A DNA stretch of 64,000 nt from Octopus vulgaris (lineage: Eukaryota). The stretch is from the NCBI GenBank assembly GCA_951406725.2, contig OX597818.1:141174001-141238000 (forward strand), given 5' to 3'. Below, one piece after another: positions 4,763-52,863 of this stretch (position 1 is the stretch's first letter; each line of letters opens with the position of its first letter). The notes under the pieces are model-generated. The model had not been told where the DNA came from. It did not search any database and saw only the letters and a list, made by a program, of their open reading frames with translations. A program made the position numbers and the translations under genes.

Positions 4763-6515
4763 AATCTTTATTATTAGCACATTGGCTCTTACAAAAAAGG
4801 GACGAACGAAGACAGACAACACAATATAGTGGGGTACATAAAACATAAATCGAATGAATATGAATATAATGATATAATGAATAATGAAATGTCTTACCTG
4901 CGCCCCACACATGAACAGTTCATTGTACTTCTTTTTTTAAAAAACATCATTTTAATTTAACAAATTTCACTTGCTTTCAACTGATTTCACTATATCTTCA
5001 GATGGCACCACTGGTGGTAGTTCGTCACATCGAACCCACGACTCCGATAATACAATTTGTTCCCCAAACAATTCTCTTAATGCTTCTATTTTCACTCTCT
5101 CTAGCAAGACTGCCCTGTTGTTCTCAGTATGCTCCACCTCCGACAATTTCACTCTGATTAGGTTTTTCATTTTAGTGACCCGCTTCTCTATTTCTACGCT
5201 CTTTTTATACTCTATCATCATCCTCCCATTTTTTCCTATCGGTACTCCATCCCGTTTTCCATCTCTATTCTCTCCTGATGTTCCTGGTTTTTGTCTCTCA
5301 AACATCTCTTACTCTTTATTGTAGCCTCCTTTCCTTTCTGAATACTTGTTTTTTCTTTTATAATTTTCTTTTTTTTATTTCTGTTCTTTCAATTTGTATC
5401 TCCTCTAAGTTGCCATTTCTCTTTTTGGTGGTGAATAGGCATTTCCATCTCTTTTCTTTTTCCTTTCACCAACTAAGTATTTTTCTCCTACGTTTTTCAT
5501 TTCTCCACTCCTTGTTCCACCTCCTGCTACTTCTGTTCTACTTCTTGTTTCTGGCGACACCTTGCTTGCATGTATCCCCGTACTTCACAGTGATAGCAGA
5601 TGGGATGTATTCCCTCCATTACAAAACTTAATTTAACATCCTCTGGCAACATAATTTCATCTACAATTTTATGCAGGTCCGGCAAACTGATTTGGACCGT
5701 CACTTCAAGGCCGTATCCAGACCAGTTTACCTCTGTTGTCCTCGTTACTTTCAGCAGAGTGGTCTCCTCTTCCGCGTTGAAGAGAATGGCTGCCACCAGC
5801 CACGTTTTATCGATTTCTGGGGTCACTCTGCCAATTATAATTCTGGCCGACTATTTGCCACATCAGGTTGGCAGCAGTGCCCACTCTTCCGACCTCAGTG
5901 GCACAGCGGAGCACTTTATTGCGTCCTGTTCGTTCGCAAACCGTACCTCCACTGTGCCGTACTTCTTGCCTCTGGTGTAGTATGTCGTAAGGGGCTTAAT
6001 ATCCTTAAGACACTCCTCCATTGCTTCAATGGTTGCTATTTCCATTATTTTGCTTGAGCTTGATAGCGTTCTATACAAAAGAGTTTGTTTTGTTTTTTTG
6101 CTGTTTCCTCCATTACCTCTTTTGGTGGGGTCAGCCTCAGGCCACTTCCTTCCTTAACTTTAAGTTAATTCGCCTTTTTCAATCTCCTCTTGTCGAATTT
6201 CACTTCTTTAACCTGCAAAACGTTGTTATTCCAACCTCTTCCCGTTGCTGCAGCATAGCTGACGGCTGGTTGTGTCAACATAACTTCGTTTCTTCAGATT
6301 GTCACAAATGACAAGAAAATTTCCAGAAAATATTTTCGTAAATATCACAGTTCACAAAATTTACAGAAACTTTTTTACCCAACAGGGCGAAAATTACCGT
6401 TTTTCAATTTCAATTAACACAAATTTACAATAAACAGAACAGGAAACGAACTCACACAGCGCAGGTAAGAAAGTGAAGACGACAACGTGTCGTAGACGAA
6501 AAAGGCGTGGCCTTG
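4763..6515 (-). mobile_element. Degenerate ORF1-only zinc-knuckle retroelement, copy 2
   Basis: Frameshifted pieces of one protein: 5863-6078 (RGKKYGTVEVRF), 5527-5826 (CYHCEVRGYMQARC) and 4967-5305 (DELPPVVPSED). No RT/ORF2 lies between the ORF end and the AATAATAAAGA 3' end. Confidence 0.8.
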
Positions 6516-6520
6516 CTAGC

Positions 6521-8151
6521 ATTATTCTTTACTATGAGCATATAGCTCTTACAAAGAAGAAGCGAACAAAGACAGACAACACAATATAGTGCGGTACATA
6601 AAACATAAATCGAATGAATATAAATATAGTGATATAATGAAAAATGAAATGTCTTACTTGCACTCCACACGCAGACAGTGTCATTTAACTGTGTTTGCAA
6701 TACATGTTCGTGAACAGTATATTATTCTTTTTTTTTTTAAACACATTTTAATTTTGCAAATTTTACTTACTTTTTATTCAATCGACAATGTATTGCACAA
6801 TGTCTTCGAATGGCACTACTGGTGGCAGCCAATCAGATCGAATCCACAGCCACAGCAATTCAATCCGGTCTTCGAACAACTCCTTCAATTCATCCGCTCT
6901 CCCTCTCTTCAGCAAAACCGATCTCTCGTCCTCTCTACACTCACTTGCCGCTATCCTAACAATTATAAAACTTTTCATACTCGTAATCCTCCTCTCCATC
7001 TCGACACTCTTTCTGCACTCCACCATACTCCTCAGATCTCTTCTTCCCGTCCCCCCTTCCATCTCCACTCCGTTCCGATGCTCCTGGTACCTGTGTGTCA
7101 ATGTTTTCCACCCATAACACCCTGCTCCACCTGCGCCTCATGCCGCTCCTGTCCCACCTCCTGTTGCACTTCCTGTTTCTGTGGATACCTCGCTCGCATG
7201 TGAACCCGGGCTCCACAGTGGTTGCAGATGGGAGGTCCTCCCTCCACTACCACTCTTAGTTTGACCCCCTCCGATAACACAATCTCATCCACAATATTAT
7301 ACAGATCCGGGACACTGATTCGGACCGTCACCACAACGCATCCAAACCAGTTCATCTCCGCTGTCCTCGTGACCCTCACGACATTGGTTTCCTCATCCGC
7401 ACTGAAGAGAATGGCCGCCACCAGCCACGTTTCTCCAAATTCTGGGGGCACTCTGCCAATCTTAATTCTGGCCGCACGTTTGCCACAGCAGGTTGGCAGT
7501 TGTGCCCACTCATCCGACCTGAATGGCACAGTGGAGTACTTTATTGCGTCCTGTTCGGTCGCAAACCATACCCCCACTGTGCCGTACTTCCTGCCTCCGG
7601 TGTTGTACGTCATAAGGTGCTTCACCTCCTTGAGGCATTCCTTCACTGCTTCAATGATTGCTACTTCCACCCTCTTACCGATGTTAGACAGCGTTCCACA
7701 GACAACATTTTCTTCGCTGCTTCCTTCAATATTTTTTGGTGGGATCAGTCTCAGACTGCTTCCCTCTTCAACAATTAGCTCGTTAAGTTTTTTCGGTCTT
7801 TGTTCGTCCTATTTCACCTCCTTGACCTGCACAACGTCGCCATTTACATCCCTTTCCGCTGCTGTAGCACAGCTGACAGCTGGTTGAAGTTTGATATCTT
7901 AGCTGGTCACAAATGACATGAAAATTTCCAGAAATTGTCTTCACAGAATCACTGTTCAATAAATTTACAGAAACTTTCCAACTCGCAGAGTGAAAATTAT
8001 AGCTTTCCACAGGACAACAGATCAAATTCTAATAAAACGTTCAATTCAAATATAACAAAAATTTACAATAACAGAACAGGAAACATACTGACATACCGTA
8101 GGCAACAACTGAAAACAACACCGTGTCTCAGACGAAAAAGGCGCGACCTTG
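6521..8151 (-). mobile_element. Degenerate ORF1-only zinc-knuckle retroelement, copy 3, head-to-tail with copy 2
   Basis: ORF 7098-7670 (GRKYGTVGVWF...CNHCGARVHMRARY) plus 6778-7101 (DWLPPVVPFED). The 3' UTR at 6521-6720 aligns with 4763-4925. The 5' motif CAAGGYCRCGCCTTTTTCGTCT is shared with copy 2. Confidence 0.8.
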
Positions 8152-17678: not shown

Positions 17679-17872
17679 ATGACCAGAACTCGGGAAGCTT
17701 AGTTTAGTGTTCTATGGTCTATGACCAGAACTCGGGAAACTTGGTTGAGTGTTCTATGGTCTATGGCCAGAACTCGAGAAACTTGCTTGACTGTTCTATG
17801 GTCTATGACCAGAAATCGGGAAACTTGGTTGAGTGTTCTATGGTCTATGACCAGAACTTGGGAAACTTGGTT
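17679..17872. repeat. 42-bp minisatellite, about 4.6 copies
   Basis: Unit ATGACCAGAACTCGGGAAACTTGGTTGAGTGTTCTATGGTCT starts at 17679, 17721, 17763, 17805 and 17847. Confidence 0.9.
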
Positions 17873-18564
17873 GTGTCCTCATCTTATAAAATGTGGCCCC
17901 AGTAGACCCAAATTAAATCGGGTTATATTAACCAAAAGGTGAAAAGGGGTATAAATGGGGCTGGAAGGGGATTAAAATTTAAAGGAGCGGGTGTTTAGCA
18001 ATTCTCTGTTACATCAAGCTAAAAAATTTGCTCCAGCCTTTTAATCGTCAATGTGTTGCCGTCCATGATGAAGAAGTTTTGAATGCTTGCCATCGTGAGT
18101 CTACTGTCGTGAGAAAGAATCAAGTCAAAACTTGGTTTTTAGGGATTTTCTTTTACATCAAGTTCAAACTTTTACGCCAGCCGTTGAACTGTCAATACGT
18201 TGCTGTCCGTCGTTAAGAAATGCCAGCCATGGTGACTCTACTATCCTCAAATTCTATCCCTTCAAACTTTGGTTTCCAATATTTTATTATTTTTATTCAG
18301 CTCGCAAGTTCGTCTGTCCCTTTTAAATGTTAGTGTTTTGCTGTCTGTCTTGAAGCAGACCTTTCCTTTGTAACTGCCTGATATTTATGATTGATCTTTC
18401 TAAATATTTTATTTCTCAACTTACTCAAGATCTTTTGTTGTTTATAAATGGGAGAGAGATACATAAAGATAGAGAGTAAGAGAAAGCGAGGGAGAGTCCG
18501 AGAGAAAGGAAGAGTAAGAGAATGGGAAAGTGAGAGAGAAAGGAGAAAGAAACAAAGAGGGAGA

Positions 18565-42814: not shown

Positions 42815-43588
42815 ATGTTTCTTTATTAGCCACACAGGGCTGCACACAGATAGAACAAATTACAAGGTAGAGCTTTTCTTTTGAAGGTTTAAGAAAGAAA
42901 AAAAAAAAAAAAAAAAAGAAAGGAAGGGGGAGTTTCGATCAAAAGGGATCGTAAAAGGAGAGAAAGAGGACAAAAAAAAGGGGGTTTAAAAAAAGGGGGG
43001 AGGAAAAAAATTGATCAATAGGGATCGTTATCACAGAAATGTCAATATGAAGTGTAAAGAGGAGGGCAGGTGAGGTTTACCCGTGCAAAGAAAAGCCTAC
43101 GGAAAAGACCACGGTAACCTCGGTCAATGATGTCACATTTTATATTTCTTTTTTTTTTTTGCAAATAAGCAACTCTCTGTTTTCGATTTCTGGGTTCATA
43201 GGACTATGCTCAAGGTGGCTTCGTCATTCATACGTGCCATTCTTGCTACATTCACCCATCTTTTTTTAAAACATTCGCTAGACAAAACTTGCCTCTCTAC
43301 TCTCACTTTCCTTTTCAAGTGGTACTTGAAGAAGTTGATGAGAGATTGACCAGAGAGGAAAGTGTTTGTCTCCAATCCTTTCAGACGCGTCCACCAGATA
43401 CATTCTTTCGCCATAGCCACAAGGATGATGAAAATAGCTCTTCCTTCCCGTTTGAAGGAAGGAGGCGTGACAATATTGACGATAGACTCAGCTGATAAAC
43501 CGACTCGTCCCACACGTGACAGCAGTTGTTCGACATAAGCCCACAGGTCGGAAATTGTTGGACACTGAACGAGTGCGTGCAGAACGGT

Positions 43589-43589
<1 letters not shown>
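42815..43589 (-). mobile_element. 5'-truncated Tx1/L1-clade LINE (ORF2 C-terminus plus 3' UTR) inserted in (GATA)n
   Basis: Open frame HALVQCPTISDLWAYVEQLL...AKECIWWTRLK...FKKRW to the stop at 43196. The tail is GGCTAATAAAGAAACAT, with (GATA)n on both sides. Confidence 0.8.
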
Positions 43590-43682
<93 letters not shown>

Positions 43683-44143
43683 TTCTTTTATTCATTTATT
43701 TGTTTGTCACTTGACTGCGACCATGCTGAAGCACCGCATTTAGTCGAACAAATTCACCCCAGGACTTTTGTAAGCCTAATACTTATTCTATCAGTAGCTC
43801 TTTTCCGAACAGATAAGTTACGGGGACATAACCACACCAACATTGGTTGTCAAACGATGGTGTGTGGACAAACACAGACACACAAACATCCTATATATAT
43901 ATATATATATATATATAGATATACTACGTTTATATATTTATATATTTAGTAAGGAGAGACACACAAATAAGAAAGAAGAAAGCAAAGGACTACTGATGGG
44001 GTCACAGGATTGTGACGAAAGAAATCTGGCCGAAATAAGATTAAGTTTAATGTAAAAAATAACTAACACTGAAGCAAAGTAACACCAAATATATAGTGCG
44101 TCTGTTTTTATTGGCTAAACTGGCAAAATGACCATTCCGAAAT

Positions 44144-50511: not shown

Positions 50512-50920
50512 GGATCTTTTCGATTTGAACAGCAGTTCTTAACATAATTTCTAGGTAACTAAAAAATTTTAAACTTCGTATACTGGTAGAATGTGTTTAT
50601 AAAACATCTTTTTCTCTTGGCTTTATTGAGAAAATTCTATTGTTTGTAAGATATTTTTTTTCAATTTCGGCAATTTCAACCAATCAATTACGTCCATTGA
50701 CGTAAACAACATTCTGTGCCGTATGAATATGTCCCTCGTTTAAGAAACAGATTGGGTTTATTTACATTTGTGAAGGAAAAAAAAAGATACCCTTCCCCCA
50801 CCCCTAATCCTAACCCTAACTAGCCCTGAATCTAAAATATATTGAAATGCAATAGATCGATACTAGAGTCATAGTTATGGGTGACAATTTCATATGACAC
50901 CGCTAGAAAAAACGGTCGTT
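50512..50920. mobile_element. Second, inverted copy of the MITE at 1105-1523 (right TIR degraded)
   Basis: Begins GGATCTTTTCGATTTGAACAGCAGTT. The body is the reverse complement of 1130-1520, including CCCTAA repeats. Confidence 0.8.
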
Positions 50921-50948
50921 TTTTTTATATATAATGCATACATGCATA

Positions 50949-50987
<39 letters not shown>

Positions 50988-51284
50988 GAAATATTAAAAT
51001 TACTAAGGTTATATGGATACAGTTTGTGTATCAAATAGCTAACTTAAGGCGATGGCCTCATGGAGCTAATAAGCGGTCAGCTTTATTCTTATTTTTATAA
51101 GAATGCCATATTAGTATGGCGATAACTAATATTTTCCGGGAACGCTGCCGTTGTTCTCTTTTAGAGAGACTTAGTAATTTTAATATTTCTATTATTGAAA
51201 ACAAGTGGATGTATTCCACCGAAGCTAGGTAAATAAAACCTTTGAACAGAGATTGTCGGAAGCGACACCTACTGGTTTGGCTAC

Positions 51285-51326
51285 GCTGCATTGAAAAGGG
51301 GCAATACCCCGAAACGCGTCTGTAGC
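51285..51326 (+). ncRNA. Type I hammerhead ribozyme, U3:A8 core variant, copy 1
   Basis: GCTGCA-TTGAAAA-GGGG-CAATA-CCCC-GAAA-CGCG-TC-TGTAGC. Predicted cleavage after C51320 (GUC). Confidence 0.8.
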
Positions 51327-51647
51327 TGCCGGCCAAGTAGTGTGGAGCGACTGACCTCCCTTGTTCAAAGGTTATATGGATACAGTTTGTGTATCAAATA
51401 GCTAACTTAAGGCGATGGCCTCATGGAGCTAATAAGCGGTCAGCTTTATTCTTATTTTTATAAGAATGCCATATTAGTATGGCGATAACTAATATTTTCC
51501 GGGAACGCTGCCGTTGTTCTCTTTTAGAGAGACTTAGTAATTTTAATATTTCTATCATTGAAAACAAGTGGATGTATTCCACCGAAGCTAGGTAAATAAA
51601 ACCTTTGAACAGAGATTGTCGGAAGCGACACCTACTGGTTTGGCTAC

Positions 51648-51689
51648 GCTGCATTGAAAAGGGGCAATACCCCGAAACGCGTCTGTAGC
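51648..51689 (+). ncRNA. Type I hammerhead ribozyme, U3:A8 core variant, copy 2
   Basis: Identical to copy 1, offset +363. Confidence 0.8.
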
Positions 51690-52010
51690 TGCCGGCCAAG
51701 TAGTGTGGAGCGACTGACCTCCCTTGTTCAAAGGTTATATGGATACAGTTTGTGTATCCAATAGCTAACTTAAGGCGATGGCCTCATGGAGCTAATAAGC
51801 GGTCAGCTTTATTCTTATTTTTATAAGAATGCCATATTAGTATGGCGATAACTAATATTTTCCGGGAACGCTGCCGTTGTTCTCTTTTAGAGAGACTTAG
51901 TAATTTTAATATTTCTATTATTGAAAACAAGTGGATGTATTCCACCGAAGCTAGGTAAATAAAACCTTTGAACAGAGATTGTCGGAAGCGACACCTACTG
52001 GTTTGGCTAC

Positions 52011-52052
52011 GCTGCATTGAAAAGGGGCAATACCCCGAAACGCGTCTGTAGC
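52011..52052 (+). ncRNA. Type I hammerhead ribozyme, U3:A8 core variant, copy 3
   Basis: Identical to copy 1, offset +726. Confidence 0.8.
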
Positions 52053-52373
52053 TGCCGGCCAAGTAGTGTGGAGCGACTGACCTCCCTTGTTCAAAGGTTA
52101 TATGGATACAGTTTGTGTATCAAATAGCTAACTTAAGGCGATGGCCTCATGGAGCTAATAAGCGGTCAGCTTTATTCTTATTTTTATAAGAATGCCATAT
52201 TAGTATGGCGATAACTAATATTTTCCGGGAACGCTGCCGTTGTTCTCTTTTAGAGAGACTTAGTAATTTTAATATTTCTATTATTGAAAACAAGTGGATG
52301 TATTCCACCGAAGCTAGGTAAATAAAACCTTTGAACAGAGATTGTCGGAAGCGACACCTACTGGTTTGGCTAC

Positions 52374-52415
52374 GCTGCATTGAAAAGGGGCAATACCCCG
52401 AAACGCGTCTGTAGC
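52374..52415 (+). ncRNA. Type I hammerhead ribozyme, U3:A8 core variant, copy 4
   Basis: Identical to copy 1, offset +1089. Confidence 0.8.
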
Positions 52416-52577
52416 TGCCGGCCAAGTAGTGTGGAGCGACTGACCTCCCTTGTTCAAAGGTTATATGGATACAGTTTGTGTATCAAATAGCTAACTTAAG
52501 GCGATGGCCTCATGGAGCTAATAAGCGGTCAGCTTTATTCTTATTTTTATAAGAATGCCATATTAGTATGGCGATAA

Positions 52578-52621
<44 letters not shown>

Positions 52622-52682
52622 TATTTATATATGCATGTATATATGTACATATATACATATATATATATATATATATACATAC

Positions 52683-52716
<34 letters not shown>

Positions 52717-52752
52717 GCATATACATACATATATATGTATATATATATATAT

Positions 52753-52863
<111 letters not shown>

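Follow-up and report, generated by a model that had tools for sequence, protein, structure and literature searches.

A Hammerhead Retrozyme of Octopus vulgaris Whose Insertion Pattern Suggests Mobilization by a Penelope-like Element

Introduction

The non-LTR retrozymes of animals, as described in Acropora, in Mytilus, and in the axolotl and newt (satellite 2), are non-coding tandem units of 150–450 bp that each contain one type I hammerhead ribozyme; their GC content is below 50% and their monomers are strongly self-paired (PMC7229834). According to the available text of de la Pena (2020; PMC7761336), retrozyme repeats show no motif that points to a partner. Vertebrate pLTR-derived retrozymes have been proposed to be non-autonomous partners to the Penelope-like elements (PLEs), which is a reading that we share for the element described here (Li, 2026; 10.64898/2026.07.22.740005). 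That proposal is based on co-occurrence and pLTR homology in Xenopus; in the text available, no mollusc was sampled and the mechanism was left open.

PLE insertions have a tail at one end, contain an inverted truncated copy, and are biased toward microsatellites (Craig, 2021; 10.1101/2021.04.23.441226). In vitro, the Poseidon element PAc starts reverse transcription at two internal sites and extends both strands, and it is predicted to act as a dimer (Frangieh, 2024; PMC11167929). Among cephalopods, 235 Rfam hammerhead matches were listed, without analysis, for the giant squid genome (PMC6962438, available text). In the available papers on retrozymes, Penelope elements, and hammerheads in octopus and other cephalopods, we found no description of the family reported below.

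Here we analyze a window of 64,000 nucleotides from the Octopus vulgaris genome that contains a young tandem element of this kind. The class of element is already known (PMC7229834), and a PLE partner has already been proposed for it (Li, 2026; PMC7761336). The fixed internal ends, the paired inverted arms, and the (TA)n target are features that we did not find described for a retrozyme in the available text of Li (2026) or PMC7761336, and this insertion pattern suggests, as evidence from the genome, Penelope-type two-strand priming. Our main reading, to which we give a probability of roughly 0.78, is that the element is non-autonomous: a hammerhead retrozyme that is moved by an RT-endonuclease taken from a PLE.

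Results

The Element Is a Pair of Inverted Arms within a (TA)n Microsatellite

TRF, applied to the whole window, found a single array at this locus (51005-52584, period 363, 4.4 copies, 99% matches), and direct comparison resolved it into four units of 363 nt and a further 128 nt, among which there are two substitutions (51556 T>C and 51759 A>C). A preliminary description of this DNA, which had counted about 4.35 head-to-tail units with two substitutions, was therefore accurate in this respect. It had also equated the element with 51005..52584; the array stands, but the left boundary of the insertion is 50982, the outer end of a 26-bp stretch that repeats unit positions 166–191 in inverted orientation and overlaps the array by 3 bp (BLAST mapping of L005, the window's own locus among the fetched loci). 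The array is flanked by (TA)n on both sides, as seen by TRF and in the sequence. From left to right, the locus consists of the left half of the target microsatellite (50946..50981, within a TRF array at 50946-50984); a short inverted arm on the minus strand (50982..51007), the outer end of which lies at unit position 191, the putative priming site B; the overlap between the arms (51005-51007); a long arm of 4.35 units on the plus strand (51005..52584, from TRF, unit comparison, and BLAST mapping), which ends at unit position 128, the putative priming site A; and the right half of the microsatellite (52585..52620). Where animal non-LTR retrozymes have a target-site duplication, it is longer than 4 bp; because the target here is (TA)n, such a duplication is unreadable at these insertions.

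The claim that the array lacks a credible open reading frame was borne out: the longest stop-to-stop frames are 51 aa (sense) and 120 aa (antisense). A search of the element for a frame with RT and GIY-YIG domains found none, and the element itself is thus not an autonomous PLE. The 363-bp unit is close in length to those of Mytilus retrozymes (350–390 bp; PMC7229834), and its GC content of 0.40 is below 50%, as in the animal retrozymes. Self-pairing of the monomer, another property of that class (PMC7229834), is predicted here as well. The first of three predicted 363-nt monomers (51321..51683, plus strand), which would be released by hammerhead cleavage, is predicted to adopt a branched, rod-like fold; the linear monomer is much more stable than shuffled sequences (z = −6.3), and similar values were obtained for the predicted circular monomers of this family, family A (z = −6.2), and of the related family B (z = −5.7; 40 shuffles each).

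Other repeats and frames were seen in the window. Just to the left of the insertion (50700-50921) lies a separate high-copy repeat with telomere-like CCCTAA runs, for which the summed contig depth reaches thousands in three sequencing runs. A 42-bp minisatellite is present at 17679-17873 (TRF; 4.6 copies, 90% matches). Two open frames outside simple repeats, of 236 and 163 aa (7098-7808 and 43196-43687, both on the minus strand), read like fragments of other retroelements.

Each Unit Carries a Type I Hammerhead with a U3:A8 Core

The presence of a type I hammerhead in each full unit, proposed from helix I, helix II, the GAAA, and the GUC, is supported by the sequence, the predicted fold, and covariation. 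Copy 1 (51285..51326, plus strand; predicted cut after 51320) consists of helix I (51285-51290 paired with 51321-51326), the first core box TTGAAAA (51291-51297), helix II (51298-51301 paired with 51307-51310), and the GAAA (51311-51314). Direct comparison of units places copies 2, 3, and 4 on the same strand at 51648..51689, 52011..52052, and 52374..52415, with predicted cuts after 51683, 52046, and 52409, and it confirms the GUC cytosines previously assigned to the four cut positions. What the first reading missed is that the core box is U-U-G-A-A-A-A, with a U3:A8 pair, and not CUGANGA, with C3:G8. Helix III is minimal: it lies within the palindrome ACGCGT, and just A-U and C-G enclose its 2-nt loop. 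The same form, a one-pair helix III whose loop is palindromic, is found in the axolotl HHR_Amex1, a ribozyme that cleaves as a dimer (PMC7229834). As hammerheads with such a weak helix III cleave as dimers (PMC4209133; PMC7229834), release of monomers from the octopus array is not assured.

The U3:A8 core, which is present in octopus families A and B, sets them apart from the retrozymes of PMC7229834. It was reported earlier in schistosome PLE hammerheads: the minimal hammerheads of the Schistosoma Cercyon PLE show the same U3-A8 covariation (PMC4209133). The Cercyon motifs are minimal and mostly single, whereas the octopus hammerheads have a 6-bp helix I and a 4-bp helix II and occur in tandem units, and the octopus genome also contains a homologous C3:G8 family.

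If the array were an ordinary satellite or minisatellite that arose by unequal crossing over, or an assembly artifact, the hammerhead would be there by chance or as a fossil, and it is consistent with such an origin that Rfam misses the motif. At gathering score Rfam found no hammerhead in the whole window, and at E ≤ 10 it found none in 50800-52800, where the matches were microsatellite-driven miRNA models and a sub-threshold RT-2; the Rfam check that had been suggested thus fails to detect the motif at either setting. Covariation across three families argues against a chance motif. We aligned 24 hammerhead copies (22 distinct) from the homologous families A, B, and C, and 93% of the cells in this alignment pair, compared with 26–49% in slid controls. 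Among the 22 distinct copies, both sides have changed in four of the six helix I pairs and two of the four helix II pairs; the 3:8 pair is C-G in 11 and U-A in 11 (U3:A8 in families A and B, C3:G8 in C); and every one of the 22 has a self-complementary helix III loop, which occurs in three palindromic forms. Since related alignment rows represent about three lineages, this covariation corresponds to a few independent events. The 3:8 pair, helix I, and the palindrome nevertheless all point one way, and we conclude from these comparisons that the hammerhead is real.

The U3:A8 pattern matches the assembly at 4793 places, versus 420 for a control. A short recurring motif of this pattern, with the box TTGAGAA and no obvious helix II, was seen at C1:21166763, 21302248, and 22161163 (G000). 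An abundant dispersed family (L191, L192, L196-L198, L202-L205, L207, and L209) carries a hammerhead-like motif with a canonical core, in some cases as close inverted pairs; a retrozyme profile gave no match to this family.

The Element Belongs to a Large Dispersed Family with Homologous Relatives

The exact 30-nt ribozyme core occurs in 892 copies, on both strands of the 2.8-Gb assembly, whereas the reversed control occurs in none, and a genome search found matches to the element spread over many contigs. It had been anticipated that dispersed arrays would start at differing phases; dispersal and a variable 5′ phase were indeed found, but the 3′ ends are fixed at two internal sites. The tandem 363-bp units, the dispersal, and the covarying hammerhead agree with the original identification of the element as young, non-coding, tandemly repeated, and of the same kind as the non-LTR retrozymes of animals.

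Family B is 80% identical to family A over 297 nt and has the same ends and target. An older family, C, was found with a profile of 63 monomers (E = 3.8e-12); it has a canonical core and ends at the homologue of site B. Its copies (L195, L206, and L210-L234) mostly have at most one unit per arm and contain three distinct helix III palindromes.

None of the sequencing runs on record as RNA contains the element. Contigs from four runs (three guessed to be RNA and one of unknown kind) span the unit piecewise, and one contig of 393 nt equals the unit plus 30 nt, which is not evidence either way because it would be expected from tandemly arrayed DNA as well as from a circle.

Insertions Pair Two Fixed 3′ Ends

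We mapped insertion ends in two sets of loci. Set 1 took in all of the loci with a core that were listed for contig C1 and for the first 107 Mb of C2, in 63 stretches that hold 64 insertions, and set 2 comprised 34 further near-identical loci; because the loci were picked for carrying a core or a whole unit, the sample favors long arms. The outer 3′ ends cluster at unit positions ~128 (site A) and ~191 (site B), which are 63 nt apart and lie 175 and 238 nt beyond the cut site, so the ends are not at the cleavage site. Among the 64 listed insertions of set 1, 38 were two-armed and inverted with one end at A and the other at B, and none was A+A or B+B; the remainder comprised 7 two-armed insertions with one end elsewhere, 17 single-armed insertions ending at A or B, and 2 others. 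Set 2 contained 25 A+B, one B+B, and no A+A insertions, together with 3 two-armed insertions with another end and 5 single-armed ones. A and B are thus paired in 63 of the 64 classifiable two-armed insertions of the two sets. Exact junction patterns occur genome-wide, related families included, 394 times for A and 1273 times for B, and among the 35 A and 100 B matches listed on C1, facing pairs were A+B in 16 cases, B+B in one, and A+A in none (about half of these pairs are loci already counted in set 1). (AT)n continues from 86 of 97 A or B ends, against a background of 3.7%, and the arms overlap by 2–6 bp in 46 of 72 inverted junctions.

The available text of PMC7229834 mentions neither fixed internal 3′ ends nor two-armed inverted insertions nor a (TA)n target for its retrozymes. 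These features resemble those of PLE insertions: PLEs, including Poseidon PAc, share with the octopus element two internal RT starts, a tail at one end, an inverted 5′-truncated copy, an AT-rich or (TA)n target, and a hammerhead upstream of the start sites (Craig, 2021; Frangieh, 2024). The octopus element differs from PLEs in that it has no protein, the whole element is repeated monomer, and the tail is 63 nt instead of 30–40 nt. At both octopus start sites the terminal bases are TA-like and match the target, whereas PAc started at a site without homology (Frangieh, 2024; PMC11167929).

An origin as a satellite or an assembly artifact is hard to reconcile with hundreds of dispersed short arrays that have fixed ends, inverted arms, and a common target, or with a window array whose units differ at two sites and whose ends fit the family pattern. 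Adjacent units that share variants (L086, L022, and L146) could be local DNA duplications, as such an origin would allow, but we regard it as largely refuted and very improbable. Two other routes to inverted arms were considered. L1-type twin priming, in which the first cDNA stops at the second site, was rejected, as 5′ ends are not in excess at positions 121–135 or 181–210, and fold-back copying, from which A+B pairing would not be expected, was judged less likely.

Two pairs of loci are described here for their individual features. L012 and L154 have identically built junctions, with an A arm of 74 nt and a B arm of 1375 nt, despite different flanks and haplotypes, which may be a coincidence. 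The insertions at L038 (1066-1105) and L088 (1247-1286) both adjoin one common GC-rich, non-microsatellite sequence, which is probably another repeat.

Both Arms Were Probably Copied from One RNA, Which May Be Circular or Linear

At 11 diagnostic sites, discordance within loci was seen in 19 of 755 locus-by-site comparisons, versus 46% expected for random copies (positions 272–274 were excluded from this haplotype comparison because of a gap-placement artifact). The two arms of a locus mismatch at 45 of 1031 shared sites, a value raised by the gap artifact, compared with 28% between loci. The simplest reading is that both arms of an insertion were copied from one RNA molecule, although copying from two RNAs of one source locus is possible.

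The form of that RNA can be approached from the lengths and 5′ ends of the arms, which we counted without L029 (a segmental duplicate of L042) and L057. Among 160 arms, in a sample that favors long ones, 122 extend beyond the cut site; 100 are longer than one unit, 31 longer than two units, and 13 longer than three. The number of arms that cross the cut site led us to reject the cleaved linear monomer as the usual template, and because the excess of stops at the cut site is slight (7 versus 3.3 expected, p = 0.051), cleaved linear monomers rarely serve as template; this weak excess is also no sign of cleavage in vivo.

It is possible, though we would not favor it, that PLE-driven insertion always uses an uncleaved linear multimer that starts near unit position 354–361, with the hammerhead kept for another step and the arrays homogenized or lengthened at the DNA level. 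The scarcity of stops at the cut site agrees with this proposal, and so does the distribution of 5′ ends, 26 of 160 of which lie at unit positions 350–363 (51354..51367 in the first unit of the window, plus strand; 6.6 expected, p = 2.5e-9), after 0–5 extra rounds and in single-armed insertions too. This hot spot counts against a circle, because a circle has no end there and a linear transcript with a start site has one. It may be a transcription start or an RT stop, and the quasi-palindrome at the hot spot could favor the joining of ends there. It halts just 11% of passes, however, which is unfavorable to a template that is always linear. Outside the hot spot, the recurrence of 5′ stops did not reach significance (the observed value was attained in 68 of 1000 simulations).

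Sequence variants bear on the same question. Variants specific to single units were found in L027, L086, and L022, and a monomer circle does not give rise to such variants; those in register in both arms of L027 and L147 favor a linear multimer. Among the apparent in-register cases, L050 was dropped as an alignment ambiguity and L159 is doubtful. Units alternate with a period of two at L147 (with both arms in step) and L023, which is what a dimer circle would give. Against an invariably linear template stand three observations. First, arm mismatch is equal in and out of register when all variants are considered (73/9869 versus 141/17590, p = 0.62), and templates were therefore mostly uniform across units. 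Second, 20 haplotypes occur, yet units inside one locus are nearly always alike, and rare variants are fixed across 4–7 units in some loci. Third, copying with truncation can only shorten arrays, yet no shortening is seen in younger arms relative to older ones (12 versus 88 arms, p = 0.32). Published experiments lend weight to the linear multimer: PAc mainly used uncleaved RNA as substrate, and insertion still took place with ribozyme mutants (Frangieh, 2024; PMC11167929), and just one of nine Xenopus dimers was cleaved (Li, 2026; 10.64898/2026.07.22.740005).

Rolling reverse transcription on a circle is plausible and fits several of the observations, and we consider that circles have probably been used as template at least part of the time. 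A mixture of circular and linear templates fits best, with homogenization at the DNA level remaining as a rival.

A Young Penelope-like Family Is a Candidate Donor

A GIY-YIG search, in which 150 of 6136 candidates were scored, gave 148 matches among those scored; 16 copies have open frames of 781 aa that encode an RT, a linker zinc finger, and a GIY-YIG domain, with a mean divergence of 1.0%. The protein matches Pfam RVT_1 and GIY-YIG (the latter C-terminal), and a CX2-5CxxC zinc finger motif lies at residues 647–655. By this motif, which Neptune has in common with Nematis (Craig, 2021; 10.1101/2021.04.23.441226), the family is Neptune/Nematis-like. Its copies end in (TA)n at two sites ~33–40 nt apart, and all three two-armed copies are of the A+B type; the 63-nt spacing of the retrozyme sites is about twice this tail. 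The pLTR hammerhead agrees with that of family B in its U3..A8 box and in its helix III palindrome, and one PLE end closes in CTATTAT, as the retrozyme ends do.

Comparison of the retrozyme monomer with the pLTRs of 46 GIY-YIG loci by blastn and nhmmer detected no homology, and because of this we infer the donor from behavior alone. An apparent link at L109, where an 80% match lies beside a GIY-YIG frame, was rejected: it is a neighboring family-B insertion, with a microsatellite between. The U3:A8 core common to retrozyme and PLE may be convergent, because the older homologous family C has a canonical core.

We lean slightly toward this young Neptune/Nematis-like family with intact 781-aa frames as the likeliest donor. 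It is possible that the donor is another PLE (a Naiad, or an unsampled Neptune or Poseidon family), perhaps with a pLTR ancestral to the monomer. Naiads occur in Octopus and show a (TA)n preference, tails, and inverted copies, but they lack hammerheads in the available account (Craig, 2021; 10.1101/2021.04.23.441226). More distant PLE subfamilies are also present in the genome (33–65% protein identity), and the scored fraction of the GIY-YIG candidates leaves room for others; the sampled family, for its part, is young and intact, has both its target and its U3:A8 core in common with the retrozyme, and has one CTATTAT end.

Several features of these PLEs were recorded in passing. The 16 copies (L121-L136; for example, L128:1131-6728) have upstream frames of 258 and 220 aa, and the cut triplet of the hammerhead is GUU or GUA. 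Their 3′ regions contain repeated motifs that we take to resemble CCAAT and CRE. Five of the 16 copies start within 70 nt of one common pLTR position. Relatives of the PLE protein (P0029, P0040, P0060, P0074, and others) are filed under the names of bivalve gill symbionts and are probably host DNA in symbiont assemblies.

Discussion

Cleavage and circles have been demonstrated for the retrozymes of PMC7229834, whereas for the octopus element the pathway that we propose combines observed patterns with steps that are conjectural. A genomic array would be transcribed, and adjacent hammerheads would pair through the palindromic helix III and cleave incompletely as dimers, as the literature and the covariation suggest, to yield monomers, multimers, and, after host ligation, circles. 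A PLE protein would then bind one RNA and cut both strands of (TA)n, the target in which the insertions lie. The 3′ ends of the target would prime reverse transcription at different sites, unit position 128 on one side and 191 on the other, in keeping with the pattern of ends, and a dimer might use both sites simultaneously. Each cDNA continues past the site of cleavage, in many cases over more than a unit's length, and would do so on a circle or on an uncleaved multimer. Finally, the cDNA ends would join through the 2–6 bp of microhomology seen at the junctions to form two inverted arms. The insertion in the window can be read as one such event, in which site A gave rise to 1580 bp and site B to 26 bp.

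A more specific version, which we put forward tentatively, is that a dimeric PLE RT-endonuclease acts on one circular ribozyme RNA, with two cDNAs primed at the two fixed sites, each by a different strand of a cut (TA)n tract. Before their ends are joined, both cDNAs would use strand displacement to roll round a monomer or dimer circle that they share.

Unlike the retrozymes of Li (2026), the octopus element has no detectable homology to the pLTRs tested, but it carries a mechanistic footprint. The family supplies named sites of priming and a target, the rule that each end uses one site and each insertion one RNA, and, in the same genome, a young, intact candidate enzyme. The questions of which enzyme moves retrozymes and whether circles are templates, left open in the available text of PMC7761336 and Li (2026), thereby become testable on a 363-nt RNA with an existing in vitro assay.

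The thousands of U3:A8 motifs suggest that consensus-based searches undercount hammerheads in genomes such as this one, and the homologous C3:G8 and U3:A8 ribozymes offer a natural comparison within one genome. If two cDNAs do roll round one circle, the arrays would document, in the genome, a two-headed form of rolling-circle target-primed reverse transcription, and this would account for the spread of animal retrozymes as well as for the one-end tail and inverted copy of PLEs.
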